DNA from: Candidatus Roizmanbacteria bacterium RIFCSPLOWO2_01_FULL_37_12
GTDB lineage: Bacteria > Patescibacteriota > Microgenomatia > UBA1406 > GWC2-37-13
Assembly (NCBI GenBank): GCA_001789645.1
Contig: MGAG01000003.1
Span: 7,843 to 71,842 of the forward strand
Reading direction: 5' to 3'
DNA: 64,000 nucleotides
Shown here: piece by piece, positions 725-62,706 of the stretch
Numbering within the stretch: the stretch's first letter is position 1
Layout: each line of letters starts with the position of its first letter
Position numbers and translations under genes: made by a program
The notes under the pieces: generated by a model
What the model saw: the letters and a program-made list of their open reading frames with translations, nothing else
Told to the model about the DNA's origin: nothing
Databases searched by the model: none

Positions 725-2547
725 TGTCAAAAAAAATTAAAGTTTCCGATCTGGTAATTAAATTTCTTGAAGATCTGGGTCTTACCCATATTTTTCTAAT
801 TTCCGGAGGCGGAAATATTCATCTCATCGACTCTGTAGGTAAAGCTAAAAAATTAAAATACGTCTGCAATCATCACGAACAGGCCTGCTCGACAGCCGCT
901 GAGGGATATGCCAGAATTCACGGATTGGGAGCTTGCCTGGTAACCACAGGACCGGGCGGCACAAACGCCATAACCGGAGTGCTCGGTGCTTATCAGGACT
1001 CGATTCCAGTAATCGTAATCTCCGGCCAGGTCAGAAGAAATACAATCGGAGCAGGGAAGTTTGCCAGACAGTTCGGCGACCAGGAGGTAAACATCGTCGA
1101 TATTGTCGAACCTCTGACAAAATATGCGGTAACAGTTACTGAACCTGACGAAATCCTTTACCACCTGCAAAAAGCCGCTTATCTGGCAAAAAACGGCAGA
1201 CCTGGTCCGGTTTGGATTGATATTCCGCTCGATGTCCAGGGATGGTTTATCTTTCAGAAAGATTTAAAAAAATTTAATCCAAAAGAAATAAAACCGGGTT
1301 ATCAAACAGAAAAAAAACTTATCAAAAAACTTGTCGGCAATACTTTAGATAAATTAAAAAACTCAAAAAGACCAGTTTTGTATGTGGGGAATGGAATAAG
1401 ACTTGCCGGAGCTGAAAAAGAATTGCTTAAACTTGTAAATCTTCTTAAAATTCCGGTTCTTACCAGTTATGCAGGTTACGATCTTCTTCCCTCTGATCAT
1501 CCGTATTTTTTTGGCAGGGGACACGCCTTTGGTCAAAGAGCGGCTAACTTTATTCTGCAAAACAGCGACCTGCTTATATCGATCGGGGCCAGATTTGATA
1601 TCCGAACCATTGGGTTTACTTACAAAGCTTTTGCTAGAAATGCCTACAAGATTATGGTTGATATTGACATACAAGAAATTAAAAAACCGATTTTATCAGT
1701 TGACTTACCGGTTAATTTTGACGCAAAACAATTTATTGCAGAAATGTTAAAACAGTTAAATAAAAATTCTTTACGCTTAAAAATTGCTGACTGGCTTAAA
1801 TACGGTAGAGATCTAAATAAAGAGTATCCTATTGTCTTGAAAGGCTATTGGAAAGAAAAAAAAGCAGTTAACCCGTATTGTTTTATTGAAACTGTCGGAA
1901 AATATCTTAAACCAAATGAATTAATTGTGGTTTCCGATGGGGTAGGACCATTAAACTGCATGTATCAGGCTTTTCATGTAAAATCCGGACAGAGAATTAT
2001 TCTTAATAACGGTACCGCCCAGATGGGTTATGGGCTACCGGCAGCAATCGGAGTTGCATTTGCCGCCAATAAAAAGAAAAGAATTATCTGTTTTGAAGGA
2101 GACGGAAGTCTGCAACTGAATCTTCACGAATTGGGAATAATGGCTCACTATAAACTACCGATTAAGTTGTTCTTATATAATAACGGCGGCTATTTATCTA
2201 TCATGAATACCCAGAGAGGGCTTTTCGGCGGAAAATTTGTCGGCTCTAACACGGAATCCGGCGTTCCGACTGTAGATTTTATTAAACTTGCGAAAGTTTA
2301 TGGTTTTAAAACAGTGAAAATCAAAAATCATTCCGATATGGTAAAAGGAATTAAAAAAGTCTTAAAAACTCCCGGTCCGGTTTTTTGCGAGATCAATTCA
2401 ACCAGGGATACAGTTCTTACCCCGAAACTTATGGCGCAAAAACTCCCCAACGGCCAATTTGTCTCACCACCCCTGGAAGATATGGGTCCCTTTTTGCCGA
2501 GAGATGAATTCAAAAAAAACATGTTAATTCCTCTATGGAAAGACTAA
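724..2547 (+). CDS. Thiamine-diphosphate-dependent enzyme, acetolactate-synthase large-subunit-like
   Basis: 607 aa. N-terminal GGGNIHLID..TTGPGGTNAITGV, and C-terminal GDGSLQLNLHELG...YNNGGY (ThDP/Mg GDG-X-NN motif). Size and layout match ALS/YerE-type enzymes. Confidence 0.85.
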   Translation: MSKKIKVSDLVIKFLEDLGLTHIFLISGGGNIHLIDSVGKAKKLKYVCNHHEQACSTAAEGYARIHGLGACLVTTGPGGTNAITGVLGAYQDSIPVIVISGQVRRNTIGAGKFARQFGDQEVNIVDIVEPLTKYAVTVTEPDEILYHLQKAAYLAKNGRPGPVWIDIPLDVQGWFIFQKDLKKFNPKEIKPGYQTEKKLIKKLVGNTLDKLKNSKRPVLYVGNGIRLAGAEKELLKLVNLLKIPVLTSYAGYDLLPSDHPYFFGRGHAFGQRAANFILQNSDLLISIGARFDIRTIGFTYKAFARNAYKIMVDIDIQEIKKPILSVDLPVNFDAKQFIAEMLKQLNKNSLRLKIADWLKYGRDLNKEYPIVLKGYWKEKKAVNPYCFIETVGKYLKPNELIVVSDGVGPLNCMYQAFHVKSGQRIILNNGTAQMGYGLPAAIGVAFAANKKKRIICFEGDGSLQLNLHELGIMAHYKLPIKLFLYNNGGYLSIMNTQRGLFGGKFVGSNTESGVPTVDFIKLAKVYGFKTVKIKNHSDMVKGIKKVLKTPGPVFCEINSTRDTVLTPKLMAQKLPNGQFVSPPLEDMGPFLPRDEFKKNMLIPLWKD

Positions 2548-3470
2548 AAGTCAAAAAAATATTCATCACTGGAAGTTCCGGATTTATTGGCAGAAATCTA
2601 AAGGAATATTTGCAGAAAAAATTTACGGTTTTTGCTCCATCCCATAAGCAACTTAATCTTCTTGATGCGGATAAAGTCAGAATTTATATTCTTAAAAATA
2701 AAATTAATGTTATTTTACATTGCGCACTGATCGGGGGTGGAAAAGAAGATCTGGAAATCAAAGATATAGTCTACTCTAATTTAAGAATATTTTTTAATAT
2801 CACCAGAAATTCGAAATTAGTAGACAAAATCATCCATTTTGGATCGGGTCTTGAGTACGACAAAAACAGACCTTTAAAATCCGTGAAAGAAGAAGATTTT
2901 GATAAAAAAATTCCAATGGATGAATACGGTTTTTATAAATATGTTTGCGCAAAATATTCTGAAAACTCCCAAAATATTTATGATCTGGTAATATTTGGAA
3001 TTTACGGTAAATACGAAGACTATCTTTATCGTTTTATTTCCAATTCAATCATCAAAAATCTGTTAAAAATGCCCATCGTAATAAATCAAAATGTCGTTTT
3101 TGATTATCTTTATATTAATGACCTGGTTAAAATTGTCGGGTATTTTATTTCTCACAAACCAAAATATAAAATTTTTAATTTGACTTCAGGAAAAAAAATA
3201 GATCTTCTTTCAATTGCAAAACTGATCAATTCGGTTGGCGAATTCAAATCCGAAATAAAAATCTTAAACAAAGGCTTGAATAATGAATACACCGCCAGTA
3301 ATAACAGATTGTTAAAAGAATTAACCGGATTTAAATTCACTCCGCACAGAGATACGATAAAAGAATTGTATAATTGGTATAAGAATCGGATGCATTTAAA
3401 TGAAAATAATAAAATCAAACAGGATTCGCATATCAAATTTTTAAATATCCATAAAAGTTTATATAAGTAA
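2535..3470 (+). CDS. NAD(P)-dependent sugar epimerase/reductase (extended SDR)
   Basis: N-terminal ITGSSGFIGRNL Rossmann motif and a YxxxK-type centre (YVCAK). 13-nt overlap with the upstream gene. Confidence 0.7.
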   Translation: MERLKVKKIFITGSSGFIGRNLKEYLQKKFTVFAPSHKQLNLLDADKVRIYILKNKINVILHCALIGGGKEDLEIKDIVYSNLRIFFNITRNSKLVDKIIHFGSGLEYDKNRPLKSVKEEDFDKKIPMDEYGFYKYVCAKYSENSQNIYDLVIFGIYGKYEDYLYRFISNSIIKNLLKMPIVINQNVVFDYLYINDLVKIVGYFISHKPKYKIFNLTSGKKIDLLSIAKLINSVGEFKSEIKILNKGLNNEYTASNNRLLKELTGFKFTPHRDTIKELYNWYKNRMHLNENNKIKQDSHIKFLNIHKSLYK

Positions 3471-3474
3471 TATT

Positions 3475-3540
3475 GTCATCCTGAACTCGGTTCAGGATCT
3501 GATTTGTGAAAAACAGATGCTGAAATAAATTCAGCATGAC
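3475..3540 (+). repeat. Family-A double-hairpin miniature element, copy A1 (66 bp)
   Basis: GTCATCCTGAACTCGGTTCAGGATC, a 16-nt spacer, then GATGCTGAAATAAATTCAGCATGAC. Both hairpins and the ATAT 3' flank closely match A6 (one mismatch in the left hairpin loop); the 16-nt spacers differ. Confidence 0.9.
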
Positions 3541-4222
3541 ATATAAGTTTATGAAAAAATCAAAAACTGTATTTTTAACCGGCGCCTCCCGCGGAATCGG
3601 TAAAGCTATCTTTAAAAAACTAAATAAACAAGGGTACAAAATAATTACTCCCTCAAGAAAAGAACTTGATCTCAGTGATCCGACTTCAATTAAACGTTTA
3701 ACTGAAGTGAACAAAAAATTAAAAGTCGACATTCTTATAAATAACGCCGGAATTAATCTACCCCAATGGATCGATGAACTTGAGGATAAAAACTTGGAAG
3801 AAACTCTTCGAATAAATCTAATTAGTCCAATTAGTCTAATCCGTGCTTTTGTCCCTTACATGAAACAACAAAAGTGGGGGAGAATAGTAAATATCTCATC
3901 GATGTTCGGAGTTGTTGCCAGGGGGAAACAAACACCTTACGTTGCCAGTAAACACGGTCTGAACGGCGTAACAAAAACCCTGGCTTTGGAATTAGGACCG
4001 TATAATATTCTGGTTAATTCAGTCTGTCCGGGATTTGTTAAAACCGACCTGGTATTGAGGAATCCTCCGGAAAAGCTTGCAGCTTTAGCCAAAGATGTTC
4101 CGCTTGGCCGACTGGCTGAACCCGAAGAAATCGCCGAACTTGTTTCTTACTTGATTTCCGACAAAAACTCATATATCACAGGAACCAACATCTTAATTGA
4201 CGGAGGATATACGTGCAGATAA
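3536..4222 (+). CDS. Classical short-chain dehydrogenase/reductase (FabG-like)
   Basis: TGASRGIGKA, NNAG and YVASKHG (YxxxK). The ATG at 3536 lies inside repeat element A1, so the real start may be the MKKSK ATG at 3551. Confidence 0.85.
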   Translation: MTYKFMKKSKTVFLTGASRGIGKAIFKKLNKQGYKIITPSRKELDLSDPTSIKRLTEVNKKLKVDILINNAGINLPQWIDELEDKNLEETLRINLISPISLIRAFVPYMKQQKWGRIVNISSMFGVVARGKQTPYVASKHGLNGVTKTLALELGPYNILVNSVCPGFVKTDLVLRNPPEKLAALAKDVPLGRLAEPEEIAELVSYLISDKNSYITGTNILIDGGYTCR

Positions 4223-4229
4223 TTCTTGT

Positions 4230-4302
4230 GTCATCCCCGATCTAATCGGGGATCCAGTCTGGATTTCCCTAAAGGGACTATAGCCCGCCTTCGTGGGAAT
4301 GA
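4230..4302 (+). repeat. Family-A variant element, copy A2
   Basis: GTCATCCCCGATCTAATCGGGGATC, then TCCCTAAAGGGA and CCCGCCTTCGTGGGAATGA hairpins. Confidence 0.7.
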
Positions 4303-10921: not shown

Positions 10922-11007
10922 GTCATCCTGAACTTGTTTCAGGATCTGGTTTTACTGGGATCCCGAAATAAATTCGGGATGACTCGCAATTAATGTTAAT
11001 GCGAGTC
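10922..11007 (+). repeat. Family-A element, copy A3, with an extra third hairpin
   Basis: GTCATCCTGAACTTGTTTCAGGATC ... GATCCCGAAATAAATTCGGGATGAC, followed by GACTCGCA-attaatgttaa-TGCGAGTC, which overlaps the rfbF stop. Confidence 0.85.
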
Positions 11008-18658: not shown

Positions 18659-20086
18659 CTACATAGCATTGTAGCGTCTCCACCTTTCCAAAATAATCCC
18701 TCTATAAGCTTTTTTCTCTACAAGACTAAATTTTTGTTCGGCTAAACGCTTCCGATAGTTAACTCCATGTATATCGGCGGTATAGGGAAGGACAAAAAAT
18801 TCTTTTTTATTAATTTTTTTGGGTATATTTTTAAGATCTTTGATTTTTAGATCACTTTTATAATATTTGATCGGATCAGCCGAAGAGGTAATCATATATA
18901 TTTCCGGTTTTCTGGGCAGGCTTTTGGTCAGACTCTTCCAGTCCTCCCTGTGAAAATTTGGGATTAATAAATAAGCAAAAGAAAAGGCCAAAAAACCTGT
19001 CAGAACAAGCCATTTTCCAACGAAGCGGCTAGAGCCGAGTTTGACTCGGTGAAATTTGGCTGATCCCAGTGCTATCAGCAAACATAATACCGGGATCAAA
19101 TATAAAAACCTGAAATACTGAAGCAGGGGAGTGAGTAATGACATAACGGTTGCCAATCCAAGCGAACCGATAATCACAAACATTAAAAATTTATTTTTAA
19201 ATCCTCCTTTTATTGCAAAAAACCAGACTATGCTTGTCCAAAATCCTGCTATAGACCAATACAACCACTTTGGCTCAAAACTAATTCGGCCTATGGAAAA
19301 TTTAATCGGAATTAATAATAGATTCTTTAAATTTGTCTTTCCCAAAACCTGCTTCCAGTTTGGAACTAACTGTAACTGCTCTTTTGCATTAGTAAATTGC
19401 TGATAGAGAAGAGGGGATAGAATTAAAAATGAAAAAATAATGGATAAAAATGAAATTAAAAAATATTTATATTGCTTTCTGTAAAGCAAGTATAAATACA
19501 TTGGGATAATTAAAAAAATAGATCCGTAAAAAGTGACAAAAGAAAGAATCGCGAAAATGTTGAATAAAATAACTTCTTTTGTCATCCCGAATTTATTTCG
19601 GGATCTGGTTTTAGAAAATGCAGATGCTGAAACAAGTTCAGCATGACAAACGGCAAAACAAAAATATAATGCAGCAGTTAATAAAAAAGTTGCCGTCATA
19701 TACATCCTCGCTTCCTGACTATAATATACTATTAAAGGGTTAAACAAAAAAAACGCCGCCGCCCACAGACCAGTATCTTCATTTTTAATCTTTTTTCCTA
19801 ACAAGTAAACGAAATAACCGGCGAGCAAGTTAAAGATTACCGATGGCATTCTTAATGCTATTTCACTGTAGTTGAAGATATTGGTCCAAGCTTTCATTAA
19901 AAGATAATAGAGTGGGGGATGAAAATCGTTCGGCGAAAATCCGCTAACAATCTGTGTAAATCCAAAGTCCCGGACAACTCTTGCCGTGGTCGCCTCATCC
20001 AACCAAAGAGATTGATTGATAGCAATTAAACGGATCAAAAAAGCAACAAAGAATATTATTAAAAGTATCTTCTTGTTCTTAAGCAT
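18659..20086 (-). CDS. GT-C membrane glycosyltransferase (family 39/83, ArnT/PMT-like) with in-frame hairpin-element insert
   Basis: N-terminal QSLWLDEATTARV motif and many TM helices. Residues VCHAELVSASAFSKTRSRNKFGMT are encoded by repeat A4. Confidence 0.65.
   Translation of the reverse strand: MLKNKKILLIIFFVAFLIRLIAINQSLWLDEATTARVVRDFGFTQIVSGFSPNDFHPPLYYLLMKAWTNIFNYSEIALRMPSVIFNLLAGYFVYLLGKKIKNEDTGLWAAAFFLFNPLIVYYSQEARMYMTATFLLTAALYFCFAVCHAELVSASAFSKTRSRNKFGMTKEVILFNIFAILSFVTFYGSIFLIIPMYLYLLYRKQYKYFLISFLSIIFSFLILSPLLYQQFTNAKEQLQLVPNWKQVLGKTNLKNLLLIPIKFSIGRISFEPKWLYWSIAGFWTSIVWFFAIKGGFKNKFLMFVIIGSLGLATVMSLLTPLLQYFRFLYLIPVLCLLIALGSAKFHRVKLGSSRFVGKWLVLTGFLAFSFAYLLIPNFHREDWKSLTKSLPRKPEIYMITSSADPIKYYKSDLKIKDLKNIPKKINKKEFFVLPYTADIHGVNYRKRLAEQKFSLVEKKAYRGIILERWRRYNAM
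19581..19647 (+). repeat. Family-A element, copy A4, inside GT-C ORF 18659..20086
   Basis: GTCATCCCGAATTTATTTCGGGATC, a 17-nt spacer, then GATGCTGAAACAAGTTCAGCATGAC. It is read through in frame on the minus strand. Confidence 0.9.
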
Positions 20087-26489: not shown

Positions 26490-26834
26490 GTCATGCTGAA
26501 CTTGTTTCAGCATCTTTCACCATTTCTTCGACAAATCTTCAAGTTTTGGATTTTTTGTTTTAATTAAATTGTATTTCCAACTTCTATGCCAATTTTTAAG
26601 CTGCTTTTCTCTAGTTATTGCACTTTCGATACTTTTGTATTCCTCAAAATAAACTAAATATTTTAAAAAATATTTTTTACTAAAACCTTCTACTAATCCG
26701 TTTTTATGCTCATACAATCTTCTTTGCAAATTATTAGTAACGCCTATATATAAAACTGATCTAGTGTAATTCGAAATAATATATACATAATAACTCATTA
26801 ATTCAAAAAGATCCCGAAACAAGTTCGGGATGAC
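26490..26834 (-). mobile_element. Candidate full-length family-A element: hairpin GTCATCCCGAACTTGTTTCGGGATC, then GIY-YIG ORF, then hairpin GATGCTGAAACAAGTTCAGCATGAC
   Basis: On the minus strand the left hairpin (26834..26810) ends 11 nt before the ATG. The right hairpin (26514..26490) starts 2 nt after the TGA. The two hairpins have the same types and order as the miniature copies. Confidence 0.55.
26517..26798 (-). CDS. Small GIY-YIG nuclease-family protein (COG2827/UPF0213-like)
   Basis: MSYYVYIISNYTRSVLYIGVTNNLQRRLYEHKNGLVEGFSKKY...REKQLKNWHR carries the GIY-X-YIG, R and E/N elements. The listed ORF start at 26822 reads through the flanking hairpin, so the ATG at 26798 is preferred. Confidence 0.85.
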   Translation of the reverse strand: MSYYVYIISNYTRSVLYIGVTNNLQRRLYEHKNGLVEGFSKKYFLKYLVYFEEYKSIESAITREKQLKNWHRSWKYNLIKTKNPKLEDLSKKW

Positions 26835-28016: not shown

Positions 28017-29585
28017 TTAGGATTTTACTCTTTTATAGACTTCAAAGTTATCCTTCTTATATATTAGCTGAAAATTGGTATCTTGAATTAATCTTTCGTA
28101 TACCGGAATCAGTTCTTTTTTTTCGGGGTAGTTGTAGACTTCGCTTGGTCTAAGAACGATATAGTCAGCCAGTCTGTATCTGGCGGAAAAAGTATAAAAA
28201 TATCTCCTCGAAGTAAAAAATGGTGACAATTGCCCGGTGGTTGAAATTTTGAGGTTTTCATCCCTTAGTGTCCTGCCCCAAAACGCCGTATCTTTAGATT
28301 GCGGTTGCGGCCATTTAAAAGGATGAATATTCTGTTTCTTTGCAAATGGTAAGGGTCCGCGTAAATACGCATTCCCAACTGCAAAAAAAAGTATATAAAT
28401 AGACATAAATAAAATTATTTTCTTCTCGTTATTTTTTTTCCTAATAACGATTAACAAATAACTAATAACTTTCTTAGTCCCGTAAACTGCCGAAATAAAC
28501 ACAAAAGGTGTGATAACTGCTGTGTAGTGATAAATAACATTACGCATATTGGGATTTTTGGATAAGAGGTTTATGGCAAATTCCGGCAGAGCAATAAAAA
28601 GTTGGATTGGGGAGAGAAGCGATAAAAATCCAACCGGACCGAGTAAAGACTTCAGGTAGTTCAAGGTGTTGTCCCGCAAAATATACTTTGAAATACTATA
28701 TGGGTTTGTCATGATTCCTATAATAATTCTTATGGGCGACTCACCGAAATCAGAGTATCTGGAAGCTGCAAAATGGTTGCCTCCCCGGAAAATCGGGATG
28801 ATATAAAAAACTGATGTGATAAACCAAAAAATACTGATAAATATAACGATTAAAGAAAAATTAAAATTCTGTCTGTCATCCTGAACTCGTTTCAGGATCT
28901 TTTTTTTAAAAATCAGATGCTGAAATAAATTCAGCATGACATATTGCCCTTTTGAATTAAAAAACGTATAAATTCCAAAAAGTAGCGTAATTAGGGCAAC
29001 TTGTTCTTTTGCCAAAAGACTCAATCCAAAAAAAATTAAGCTCAGCCAATATTTTTTAACCAGCCAGAAATAAAACATGAATAAAAGCAGAGTCGTAGCT
29101 AATGCTACGGCATGAAATTCAAAAATGTTTGTCAGTTGCAGCGGAGGATAGACTAAATAGCTTAAAGAAAAGATAAGGGATAAGACAAAAGAGTAGCTCA
29201 ATTTTTGAAAATTAAACCGTGCTATCTTAAATACTGCCATTGCTCCAAGAGCCAGCATGACGGACTGGACGACTAAAAGTGTCTCAGGTCCTGAATAAAT
29301 AAAATAAAAAGGCGCCAATAAAGCCAACATAGGATCGTTATGAATTGCCATTCTTTTTATCTGTTCTGCTCCGCTGGGATTCGTCAATTCAAGAAATCTG
29401 CTCAGGTCCCCGGTTTTAAGTGATTGGTAGGTATTAAAAACCGTCTGGTGCATAATCCCCAAATCGTAATATGAGGCATAAAGAGTCTTGTAACGGAGAA
29501 TAGAAAAGTAAGAAAAATAAACGATATATGCTAGAATAAAAATCCAAAGCAGGATTTGGATTTTATATTTGTTAAGAAAATACAT
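28017..29585 (-). CDS. Large polytopic membrane protein, DUF2079-like, with in-frame hairpin-element insert
   Basis: 522 aa. SYYDLGIMHQTVFNT resembles the DUF2079 N-terminal motif. Residues VMLNLFQHLIFKKKILKRVQDD are encoded by repeat A6. Confidence 0.6.
   Translation of the reverse strand: MYFLNKYKIQILLWIFILAYIVYFSYFSILRYKTLYASYYDLGIMHQTVFNTYQSLKTGDLSRFLELTNPSGAEQIKRMAIHNDPMLALLAPFYFIYSGPETLLVVQSVMLALGAMAVFKIARFNFQKLSYSFVLSLIFSLSYLVYPPLQLTNIFEFHAVALATTLLLFMFYFWLVKKYWLSLIFFGLSLLAKEQVALITLLFGIYTFFNSKGQYVMLNLFQHLIFKKKILKRVQDDRQNFNFSLIVIFISIFWFITSVFYIIPIFRGGNHFAASRYSDFGESPIRIIIGIMTNPYSISKYILRDNTLNYLKSLLGPVGFLSLLSPIQLFIALPEFAINLLSKNPNMRNVIYHYTAVITPFVFISAVYGTKKVISYLLIVIRKKNNEKKIILFMSIYILFFAVGNAYLRGPLPFAKKQNIHPFKWPQPQSKDTAFWGRTLRDENLKISTTGQLSPFFTSRRYFYTFSARYRLADYIVLRPSEVYNYPEKKELIPVYERLIQDTNFQLIYKKDNFEVYKRVKS
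28875..28940 (+). repeat. Family-A element, copy A6, inside DUF2079-like ORF 28017..29585 (66 bp = 22 codons)
   Basis: GTCATCCTGAACTCGTTTCAGGATC, a 16-nt spacer, then GATGCTGAAATAAATTCAGCATGAC. Confidence 0.9.
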
Positions 29586-37005: not shown

Positions 37006-37090
37006 ATATGCATTAACATTAATTGCATATTATCCCGAATTTATTTAGGGATCCCAATAAAATCAGATCCTGAAACGAGTTCAGGATGAC
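37006..37090 (+). repeat. Family-A element, copy A7 (degenerate left hairpin, plus an ATATGCA..TGCATAT hairpin)
   Basis: ATATGCATTAACATTAATTGCATAT, TATCCCGAATTTATTTAGGGATC, GATCCTGAAACGAGTTCAGGATGAC. The GCAATTAATGTTAATGC module is shared with A3 in inverted orientation. Confidence 0.8.
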
Positions 37091-43647: not shown

Positions 43648-43739
43648 GTCATGTTGAACTTGTTTCAACATCTGTTTTTTAACTTTTTAAAAAACTAAAG
43701 TTTACTAAAAATCAGATCCTGAAATAAATTCAGGATGAC
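43648..43739 (+). repeat. Family-A element, copy A8 (long spacer)
   Basis: GTCATGTTGAACTTGTTTCAACATC, a 42-nt spacer, then GATCCTGAAATAAATTCAGGATGAC. Confidence 0.85.
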
Positions 43740-54820: not shown

Positions 54821-56032
54821 ATGAAAATATTATTTTTTTCTCCATATTTTTATCCTTATACTTCGGGTATTACCACCTATCCCCTGAAAATACTGTCCTA
54901 TCTTGCCAAAAAACATGAAATTAATGTCCTGACTTTTCGTCATAGCAAAAACTTATGGAGTCGGGAAAAATTTCAGGGAATAAATATTCAGAGAATGCCG
55001 TATATCTTTAAAATATCCAAAGGATTTATATCTCCCCAATCCGTATGCTTTTTCCTGAAGCAGGCAATAAAATCCGACCTGATTATTTTAAATAATCCCA
55101 ATTTCGAAGGGTTTATCCTGGCTTTGCTTGCCAAGATTTTTCGTAAAAAAATTATTGCAATTTTTCACTGTGAAGTTCTCCTGGGCGATAACATTATTGC
55201 CCGGATTATTAATTCAACTTTAAATTCATCCGTTTATTTACAGCTTTATTTAAGCGATACAATTATTGCCTATACCAAGGACTATATTGATAGTATACCT
55301 ATCGGTAAAATTTTTAATCATAAAATTAAATATACTCTCCCACCCGTAGAAAGGCTACCGATCAATAAATATAAACTTGCAGAATTTCGAAAATTAAAAG
55401 GGAATAATATCTGGATTGGTTATGCCGGAAGATTTGCTAAAGAGAAAGGCTTGGAATACTTGATTGAAGCAGTTCATAATTCAGAATTCAAAATTCAGAA
55501 ATCTTGTCTTGTATTCGCCGGACCTTACGGAAAAGAAGTGGCCGGTGAGGAAAAATATTATCTTGAAATAAAAAAAATGCTCGGCCATTATGGAATCAAG
55601 CACCATTTCTTTGGCAATTTGTCTACCGGTAATCTGGGTGCATTTTATAAATCGATTGATGTTCTGGTACTGCCATCCATAAATAAAACTGAGGCTTTTG
55701 GCATGGTCCAGGTAGAAGCCATGCTTTTAGGAATTCCAGTAATCGCATCAAATCTGCCTGGAGTTCGGATACCAATTAAACTTACCAAAATGGGTGAGAC
55801 AGTAGAACTAAAAAATATTGAACAGCTTTCAACTGCAATTATGAAAATAATAAAAAACAAAAATAAATATACAAATGAGAAAATAATATTAAAAACGCGA
55901 GTTATTTTTGATATTAATAAAACTAATTCATTTTACGAAAAATTATTTCTAAAAATAATTTGGCTTGGGATCTTATTTATTTCCGGTTATTTCAAAAATA
56001 TAAAAGGCTACAATATTACTTGGATAATATAG
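54821..56032 (+). CDS. GT4-family (GT-B fold) glycosyltransferase
   Basis: C-terminal EAFGMVQVEAMLLGIPVIASNLPG (E-x7-E region). It contains a 3x heptamer block (NSEFKIQ). Confidence 0.8.
   Translation: MKILFFSPYFYPYTSGITTYPLKILSYLAKKHEINVLTFRHSKNLWSREKFQGINIQRMPYIFKISKGFISPQSVCFFLKQAIKSDLIILNNPNFEGFILALLAKIFRKKIIAIFHCEVLLGDNIIARIINSTLNSSVYLQLYLSDTIIAYTKDYIDSIPIGKIFNHKIKYTLPPVERLPINKYKLAEFRKLKGNNIWIGYAGRFAKEKGLEYLIEAVHNSEFKIQKSCLVFAGPYGKEVAGEEKYYLEIKKMLGHYGIKHHFFGNLSTGNLGAFYKSIDVLVLPSINKTEAFGMVQVEAMLLGIPVIASNLPGVRIPIKLTKMGETVELKNIEQLSTAIMKIIKNKNKYTNEKIILKTRVIFDINKTNSFYEKLFLKIIWLGILFISGYFKNIKGYNITWII
55478..55498. repeat. Three tandem heptamers (AATTCAG AATTCAA AATTCAG) inside the GT4 gene
   Basis: Read directly from the sequence. 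21 bp = 7 codons (NSEFKIQ). Confidence 0.75.
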
Positions 56033-61953: not shown

Positions 61954-62706
61954 ATGAAAAAAACCAAAATACTTTCAATAATAATACCAGTTTATAATGA
62001 GGAAAAATACATTAAGGTTTTGCTTTCGAAGGTATATAAGGCTGATACGCTGGGTATGAAAAAGGACATAATAGTCGTTAATGATGGTTCAACCGATAAT
62101 TCAAAATTAAAAATTCAAAATTCAAAATTTCAACTCAAAAGTCAAAAGTCAAAAATAACATTGATTAATAAAACAAGAAACGAGGGGAAGGGAAAGGCTT
62201 TAAAAGAAGGTATTCTAAAATCGACTGGTGATATAGTCATTATCCAGGATGCAGATTTGGAATATGATCCGCTCAACTACCCAACTCTGCTGGAACCGTT
62301 TATCAAATATGATGCCGATGTAGTCTTTGGATCTCGATTTATCAGTCAACATCCGCACCGAGTACTCTACTTCTGGCATTTTATCGGCAATTTTTTCCTG
62401 ACGTCTTTATCTAATTTATTTACCAATCTAAATTTCACCGATATGGAAACAGGTTATAAAGTATTTAAGGGTGATTTAATTCGGAAAATAGCGCATAAAT
62501 TGGAAAGTAAACGCTTTGGTTTTGAGCCCGAAATAACAGCCAGAATAGCAAAAAATAAAGACTTAAAAATATATGAAGTGGGAATTTCGTATTTTGGCAG
62601 AACGTATAAAGAAGGAAAAAAAATCGGCTGGAAAGACGGGATTAGGGCCGTTTGGGAAATTATTAAGTATAATTTCCTCGAGTTAGAACAAACGAAAGAC
62701 CCTTAA
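61954..62706 (+). CDS. GT2 glycosyltransferase (DPM1-like, soluble)
   Basis: LSIIIPVYNEEKYI, VNDGSTDN and IQDADLEYDP. An insert of about 20 aa (SKLKIQNSKFQLKSQKSK) is encoded by heptamers. Confidence 0.85.
   Translation: MKKTKILSIIIPVYNEEKYIKVLLSKVYKADTLGMKKDIIVVNDGSTDNSKLKIQNSKFQLKSQKSKITLINKTRNEGKGKALKEGILKSTGDIVIIQDADLEYDPLNYPTLLEPFIKYDADVVFGSRFISQHPHRVLYFWHFIGNFFLTSLSNLFTNLNFTDMETGYKVFKGDLIRKIAHKLESKRFGFEPEITARIAKNKDLKIYEVGISYFGRTYKEGKKIGWKDGIRAVWEIIKYNFLELEQTKDP
62098..62153. repeat. About eight tandem heptamers (AATTCAA / AGTCAAA types) inside a GT2 gene
   Basis: AATTCAA AATTAAA AATTCAA AATTCAA AATTTCA ACTCAAA AGTCAAA AGTCAAA. Confidence 0.8.

Follow-up and report, generated by a model that had tools for sequence, protein, structure and literature searches.

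We were curious to see how a short palindromic repeat had come to lie in frame inside a membrane protein gene of Candidatus Roizmanbacteria bacterium RIFCSPLOWO2_01_FULL_37_12, and whether it had arrived there recently or was an old part of the protein. The repeat (66 nt, positions 28875-28940) sits in a DUF2079 gene within a 64,000-nt stretch of contig MGAG01000003.1 (positions 7,843-71,842) that we refer to as the window; the genome as a whole comprises 1.34 Mb on 41 contigs (36% G+C). The repeat is very probably a gene-less, head-out dimer of the hairpins recognized by Ssn-type GIY-YIG nucleases, that is, a pair of TGTC-tagged repetitive extragenic palindromes (REPs) from a divergent branch of the Ssn-related motifs (SRM). 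On the best reading, the protein loop that carries it is a permissive, very short inter-helix site that has been colonized repeatedly, its occupant turning over. The parts of the locus are:

28017-29585, minus strand: host gene, a DUF2079 membrane protein of 522 amino acids (aa) with a predicted GT-C glycosyltransferase-like fold (Pfam and structure model)
28875-28940, minus strand: 66-nt hairpin dimer of family A (copy A6), tags pointing outward (direct read)
28874-28902, plus strand: module 1, with a T-GTC tag, an 8-bp stem (ATCCTGAA/TTCAGGAT), loop CTCGT and tail CTT
28900-28915, no strand: A/T spacer between the modules, 16 nt, with five positions differing from copy A1
28913-28941, minus strand: module 2, with a T-GTC tag, stem ATGCTGAA/TTCAGCAT, loop TTTAT and tail CTG

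On the minus strand the dimer reads GTCATGCTGAATTTATTTCAGCATC-TGATTTTTAAAAAAAA-GATCCTGAAACGAGTTCAGGATGAC, with the A/T spacer as its 16-nt middle, and it extends to 68 nt (28874-28941) once the T and A of the TGTC tags (28874-28877 on the plus strand, 28941-28938 on the minus strand) are included. Its translation, VMLNLFQHLIFKKKILKRVQDD, corresponds to host-protein residues 216-237. A preliminary description made from the sequence had reported an exact 66-bp, 22-codon in-frame element in a DUF2079-like membrane protein; its sequence, frame and coordinates proved correct in every detail, including the start of codon 216 (29585-645 = 28940). Folded as single-stranded DNA, the dimer reaches -15.7 kcal/mol (about -15 to -17.5; z ~ -5.4). 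The tag and the C just past the palindrome are intact in both modules, and decay is absent from this copy. An assembly artefact was ruled out, because frame and orthology continue on both sides of the element, synteny is conserved and the same protein is found on 11 contigs.

To place the insert in the history of the protein, we surveyed the loop in 120 orthologues and built their tree without the loop columns. The gene order xerC-DUF2079-GT2 is conserved in relatives, and the comparisons are therefore among true orthologues. Loop length ranged from about 8 to about 70 residues. Orthologues without the 22 residues are the rule: Most of the 120 have a short loop with no repeat, and the sister of the window protein (P0001) carries a different hairpin family at this site. 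Clean family-A sequence was found in four orthologues (P0001, P0011, P0023 and, for the left half only, P0022) and decayed family-A-like sequence in about nine. A second loop family (C; HSGERSDSRI...GQARMT) occurs in four orthologues and a third (D; CHCERLKGAKQSQ...RFAPRND) in five. At the DNA level, families A, C and D all begin with GTCAT and finish with ATGAC.

The distribution of these families over the tree argues for turnover. P0002, the orthologue from genome G007, is the sister of P0001 (support 100*; 81% identity overall and 87% outside the loop) and carries family C. P0011 is in turn sister to P0017 (97*), and here again family A is paired with family C. Well-supported branches force at least four changes for the clean family-A copies. 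Members of the genus have family A (G000, the window genome), family C (G007 and G004), family D (G006) or no repeat (G001, G003 and G005) in this loop. The window copy is free of decay and the sister species lacks it; it therefore arrived, or was renewed, after the split from the G007 lineage.

The same families also return to the same places. P0011 (65% identity to the window protein) and P0023 (about 57%) have a family-A dimer at the same codon, in the same orientation and frame as in the window, and P0022 (60%) has the left family-A module at that codon. Five orthologues that form a clade (100*) have in common a decayed copy that is recognizably family A in its DNA, with eroded stems and the frame kept. 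Family A begins 27 nt after a conserved Tyr codon, and 39 nt before a Ser codon, in four non-sister lineages; family C begins 19 nt after the Tyr codon in three lineages, and family D 13 nt after it in G006 at the DNA level, with the same position in all five orthologues judging by the protein alignment. The four family-A copies that share a codon have unrelated sequences in the 27 nt upstream, and no target motif is therefore apparent. These family-specific positions could reflect constraint, with a single usable phase per family and few usable codons in the loop, or they could reflect a site-directed process initiated by a nuclease.

Other loop contents were seen in the same survey. P0011 has a second, different GTCAT-tagged hairpin with a long loop (L008:1869-1910) in another variable loop of the DUF2079 gene (about residue 358-372). 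The loops of P0003, P0014, P0028 and P0034 are filled with peptides such as SNFKIQIVNKFKI, which resemble translations of the AAATTCAAAATTC-type low-complexity repeats dispersed in the window (D3, D5, D6 and D17; e.g., 55473-55500 and 62100-62127). These repeats may be another class that enters coding loops.

Apart from the insert, the host protein is intact. The Pfam DUF2079 match (E=4e-54; residues 31-515) spans the insert. An AlphaFold model built with 39 orthologues (pLDDT 84.5, pTM 0.86) has an intact protein core and places the insert between helices H196-218 and H228-267, lengthening both, with a coil between them. The blocks of lowest pLDDT (54, 52 and 68; residues 211-240) coincide with the insert. 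A Foldseek search with the model returned STT3, ArnT, AglB and AftA (E down to 2.7e-6, TM about 0.5). The protein is thus modeled as a GT-C-fold, sugar-transferase-like membrane protein with the insert in a floppy inter-helix loop.

The preliminary description had taken the high identity between this copy and an intergenic one as a sign of recent spread rather than of an ancient conserved loop. The intergenic copy is:

3475-3540, no strand: copy A1, an intergenic family-A dimer between two co-directional open reading frames (ORFs) (alignment to A6)

The alignment itself agreed with the description. The 25-nt modules of A1 and A6 differ by one loop base (CTCGG vs. CTCGT), the spacers differ at 5 of 16 bases, and overall identity is 92% over 71 nt; T ahead of GTCAT and ATAT behind ATGAC are common to both. 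A1 is indeed intergenic, occupying the 65-nt gap between ORFs 2535-3470 and 3536-4222. The upstream ORF stops (3468-3470) just ahead of the A1 tag, and the ATG (3536-3538) within the right terminus of A1, CATGAC, is the first start codon of ORF 3536-4222, so that the element may furnish a start codon to that ORF.

The dating drawn from the alignment fared less well. The closest copy to A6 is a dimer at contig C22:1053-1117 with both modules identical to those of A6, and identical 25-mers are also present in other species and genera, presumably held there by nuclease recognition. The A1-A6 identity therefore cannot date the insertion and is a weak sign of recency; we dropped it as a dating argument. 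Moreover, homologous segments do occur in distant orthologues, as the same-codon copies of P0011, P0023 and P0022 attest. What stands of the claim is that the segment is repeat-derived and not ancestral; what does not stand is recency as opposed to a long history, given family A at the same codon in orthologues at about 57%-65% identity. Neither reading holds in full: Such elements have occupied this site again and again over a long time, and its occupant changes.

Family A is a true repeat family in this genome. The two 25-mers of A6 had five and eight matches in the window at ≤3 mismatches, compared with none in 100 shuffles, and a strict module pattern had 50 matches in the genome, compared with none for the reversed control. 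Depending on the pattern, we counted 50-58 modules genome-wide, with 24 inverted dimers (60-92 nt) and about 17 solo modules. A looser pattern, which fixed the tag, the inner GAA/TTC and ATC only and did not require stem complementarity, returned 58 modules, of which 57 were perfectly complementary at the three free stem positions. Six stem variants were represented (CCT/AGG, GCT/AGC, CCC/GGG, TCC/GGA, GTT/AAC and TCT/AGA). Since 57 of the 58 modules are compensated across these variants, the hairpin is under selection. Most dimers join two unlike stems. T stands ahead of GTCAT in 17 of 23 dimers, and no target-site duplication was found at the flanks of any of the 23, where the only match is the T...A that completes the TGTC tag.

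Insertion within genes is not unique to A6. Five of the 24 dimers are internal to long ORFs; besides the DUF2079 gene, the hosts are two PMT_2-like proteins, a methyltransferase and an asparagine-synthase-like fusion protein (the last named from its sequence), and the dimers in these other hosts employ two different reading frames. Of 138 dimer-frames in the genome, just 18 lack stops, and each intragenic copy sits in an open one. For A6 a single frame of the six is open, and it is the frame in use. Survival in frame is therefore filtered and not automatic. The window is also enriched: It contains 12 of the 50 strict modules, compared with 2.4 expected (p=3e-6), in a stretch of cell-envelope glycosylation genes (GT2, DUF2079, PMT_2 and EamA). 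Further copies in the window are:

19581-19647, minus strand: second in-frame family-A dimer, in another reading frame (CHAELVSASAFSKTRSRNKFGMT), in a PMT_2-like GT-C gene (18659-20086)
10922-10983, no strand: family-A dimer of 62 nt (dimer listing)
43648-43739, no strand: family-A dimer of 92 nt with a long spacer (dimer listing)
37066-37090, minus strand: solo family-A module identical to module 1 of A6 (25-mer match)

In the PMT_2-like protein the Pfam PMT_2 match (56-228) again spans the insert (residues 147-169). The dimer in the loop is clean in G000 and partly decayed in G003 (locus L056), and G005 (L055), the closest orthologue, has a composite of families A and B there; the loop thus behaves like the DUF2079 loop.

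Family B is a second hairpin family (GTCATTCCCGCGAAAGCGGGAATC and variants) with about 29 modules in the genome, and A/B hybrids are also present. GTCATTCCCGCGAAAGCGGGAATC is letter-for-letter the Neisseria NTS consensus. Examples lie at C10:1358-1412, C15:4476-4548 and C30:9148-9211 and, in the window, possibly at 4229-4251 (contig C3:12072-12093). A 763-aa membrane protein carries, at C20:11436-11460 and surroundings, a composite insert (VMPNIFRNLDSGQARMTNQILKLVQDD) in the order family-A left half, family-C right module, family-A right module. The composite suggests, from the order of its parts, that one hairpin family was nested within another.

Which enzyme might recognize family A? A candidate lies 2 kb from the insertion:

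26490-26834, minus strand: hairpin-nuclease-hairpin unit, the likely parent type (family-A module, GIY-YIG gene, family-A module)

The GIY-YIG ORF (26517-26822, minus strand; probable start 26798; 93-101 aa) matches PF01541 with 60.9 bits and is bracketed by family-A modules at 26490 and 26834. A search of NCBIfam with the protein gave no match, and a PDB sequence search gave a weak, marginal match to 1zg2, a UPF0213 protein. Homologues at 57%-76% identity (in G001, G008, G007, G052, G006 and G003) all have family-A modules, on both sides of the gene and about 320 nt apart in the first five and on one side, at a contig end, in G003. Homologues at 51%-55% identity have NTS-type modules instead. 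Nuclease clade and hairpin family therefore co-vary. Across genomes, an Ssn-like gene was present in 18 of 18 with at least five family-A modules, compared with 13 of 43 others (Fisher p=2e-7, with no correction for kinship). No flanking modules were detectable at the GIY-YIG gene of the sister locus L009. A second Ssn-like gene of the window genome (C13:9852-10235) has a family-B (NTS-type) module at its 5' end.

These observations point to a possible route of arrival. The dimer would be a miniature, non-autonomous form of the hairpin-ssn-hairpin unit, and it would have arrived through a single-strand-DNA process that begins when Ssn cuts immediately 5' of each TGTC tag. Host replication or repair would complete the insertion, leaving no target-site duplication. 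The 22 encoded residues would be a tolerated passenger that lengthens two helices and the loop connecting them. Both modules are probably still live nuclease sites; live sites would favor local breaks, nesting and replacement and would in this way explain the reuse of the same loop.

A number of points weigh against this account. Family A, checked by hand, does not fit the published SRM string HGTCWYN(0-2)YYVSBRHN(0-5)WNVSBRGN(0-2)RNCYNB: CCTGAAC fails at the V and B positions under any allowed offset, whereas family-B modules fit the NTS consensus. Of eight small GIY-YIG genes in the genome, only two adjoin detectable tagged hairpins, and shared kinship may contribute to the association across genomes. 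Recognition and cutting of family A by the 93-aa protein is predicted from its gene, and the insert is presumed to be translated because its frame is intact. We found no empty-site allele of this very gene, the 90% protein cluster consisting of one member sequence on 11 contigs. Finally, we know of no GIY-YIG enzyme that joins DNA, and the integration step is thus unexplained.

We weighed several other histories for the loop. The family-A insertion could be old and go back to the ancestor of much of the orthologue tree, the window lineage having inherited it while relatives later lost it, let it decay or had it overwritten by other families. This history accounts for a position that P0001, P0011 and P0023 share down to codon, orientation and frame (P0022 for the left half), for the five-orthologue clade (100*) with its decayed copy, and for the PMT_2 dimer, which is common, partly decayed, to G003 and in part to G005. 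We nonetheless consider it unlikely, if deserving of serious attention: The four clean copies are scattered, each with a nearest relative that lacks family A (P0002 and P0017 having family C), with at least four forced changes, and a single origin demands dozens of clean deletions. The window and P0011 copies are, besides, at consensus (25/25 and 23/25 between them) amid neighboring codons that are saturated with changes, and the copy of the decayed clade begins about 14 nt past the Tyr codon instead of 27. Alternatively, co-occurring Roizmanbacteria may have exchanged the loop and its flanks by homologous recombination, so that the same-codon copies are not separate insertions. Each family does keep its own position regardless of phylogeny (A at 27, C at 19 and D at 13 nt after the Tyr codon), and whole-protein identity predicts less similarity than is seen between the flanks of P0001 and P0011 (z=+1.5), and more than is seen between the flanks of P0011 and its sister P0017 (z=-1.9). 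But same-family flanks were not significantly more alike over all pairs (mean z 0.80 vs. 0.56, Mann-Whitney p=0.17), and the four family-A copies have dissimilar sequences in the 27 nt ahead of them, which leaves such exchange improbable.

It is also conceivable that the 22 residues were selected as a functional addition, a new amphipathic, basic helix-loop, and that the palindrome in the DNA is a by-product. The peptide has a basic character and a position between membrane helices, and its frame is kept even in decayed copies; yet the same DNA occurs between genes and in other reading frames of unrelated proteins, compensatory stem changes alter the peptide, orthologues function with unrelated inserts or none, and pLDDT is at its minimum at the insert. 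We give this idea very little credence. The dimers might instead be REPINs (paired, inverted REPs) mobilized by a Y1 (IS200/IS605-like) transposase of the type associated with REPs (RAYT), with the GIY-YIG gene a passenger between repeats. The inverted-pair anatomy and the absent target-site duplication fit REPINs (PMC3116915, PMC3337134), and seven ORFs of the genome (214-252 aa) match Y1_Tnp (PF01797) and contain HxH and Y motifs. None of the seven, however, has a tagged hairpin within 1.5 kb, the tag is TGTC and not GTAG, no transposase dedicated to CGTC REPs emerged from the work of Di Nocera and colleagues (PMC3733652), and, from genome to genome, the hairpin family varies together with the GIY-YIG clade; a RAYT was rejected as the main explanation and seems to us scarcely credible. 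Paralogues of the Y1_Tnp gene lie at C3:143992-144663, on C27 (three copies) and on C23, C9 and C22. A bolder extension of the Ssn-hairpin account would make the dimers and the hairpin-ssn-hairpin units a true class of mobile element, driven by a GIY-YIG single-strand DNA nuclease in a homing-like, duplication-free manner and entering or overwriting permissive or occupied sites at family-specific positions. Such a class would explain why sister species have different hairpin families in the same five-codon loop, why lineages that are not sisters have one family at an identical nucleotide position, and why copies stay at consensus while the host gene diverges. It remains a doubtful proposition in our judgment.

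Returning to the reading that we prefer, a dimer of Ssn-type hairpins in a repeatedly colonized loop, we compared the locus with known systems. The CGTC REP superfamily, which includes Rickettsia RPE-4 and RPE-6, Neisseria dRS3/NTS and Wolbachia CGTC-4, is the nearest in anatomy (Di Nocera, De Gregorio & Rocco 2013, PMC3733652). Its members often have TGTC as the tag, an 8-9-bp stem with A-T at positions 1 and 2, a 4-5-nt loop and a short tail; they are mostly inverted dimers, often heterodimers, and intragenic dimers code for 20-30 residues (PMC3733652). Family A likewise has an unpaired (C/T)GTC tag, a stem starting with AT, a 5-nt loop and a short 3' tail, and it is a multi-copy family of mostly inverted heterodimers, with intragenic dimers in protein loops. 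It differs in its stems (CCTGAA/GCTGAA) and in its 3-nt tail, which is CTG in most copies and CTT in module 1 of A6 and has only C in common with the CCA consensus. It differs also in its host, a bacterium of the candidate phyla radiation (CPR), Patescibacteria not being among the five phyla of the 2013 list, and in the GIY-YIG gene bracketed by repeats, no enzyme being associated with the superfamily in that work (PMC3733652).

The Ssn proteins, small nucleases of the GIY-YIG type, recognize hairpins of this sort on single-stranded DNA and cleave it a few nucleotides upstream (Chenal et al. 2025, Nat Commun 16:2388, PMC11893778). Their cleavage is site-specific on single-stranded DNA, with none on double-stranded DNA or RNA, and for Neisseria SsnA the tag and the C after the palindrome matter for both cutting and binding; in Neisseria, Ssn modulates transformation, and NTS cluster near envelope genes (PMC11893778). 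The window genome shares with this system a hairpin whose GTC tag gives it direction and whose palindrome is followed by C, the repeat-ssn-repeat layout around a single-domain GIY-YIG gene of ~94 aa, the many dispersed copies that cluster near cell-envelope genes, and a hairpin family (B) equal to the NTS consensus. On the other hand, 2% of NTS lie inside genes in N. meningitidis (PMC11893778) compared with five of 24 dimers here, and cleavage has been shown for the Neisseria enzyme, whereas for the nuclease here it is predicted. Surveys with the SRM string undercount the system, because CTGAA-type hairpins are missed by the published string yet co-vary with their own Ssn clade.

In-frame palindromes have a precedent in the Rickettsia palindromic elements (RPEs), reportedly described by Ogata and colleagues in 2000. 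Like family A, they are palindromic selfish repeats of a small genome that occur in frame in genes and are tolerated in surface loops, the host protein being otherwise intact. At about 100-150 bp, RPE-1 is longer than the family-A dimer, to which it is probably unrelated in sequence. Furthermore, most RPEs at orthologous sites have been passed down with the gene and have diverged along with it, whereas sister species here have different occupants at one site. REPINs (Bertels & Rainey 2011, PMC3116915) resemble the dimers in having two inverted hairpins with a short spacer as a non-autonomous unit, no target-site duplication, and a single-copy enzyme gene flanked by repeats; they differ in their GTAG tag and in the flanked gene, which is GIY-YIG here rather than a Y1 transposase, the Y1 genes of this genome having no flanking hairpins. 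A classical miniature inverted-repeat transposable element derived from a DDE insertion sequence would share the inverted termini (TGTCAT...ATGACA), but it was rejected on the absence of a direct repeat at the 23 dimers.

The element is therefore of a kind already known, a TGTC-tagged REP or Ssn-type dimer that is RPE-like in frame; what this locus adds is a turnover hot spot documented across orthologues. No report of such repeats in Patescibacteria or CPR was found in the literature searched. A single locus joins the in-frame elements of Rickettsia, the CGTC-tagged REPs and the Ssn/SRM system of 2025, and extends all three to the CPR. For annotation, peptides such as VMLNLFQH...ILKRVQDD mark repeat-derived loops and not conserved motifs. 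With three hairpin families or none within one genus, the DUF2079 loop is a natural experiment, and a tractable one for asking whether these repeats move, how their sites are chosen, and how selfish DNA becomes new protein sequence.

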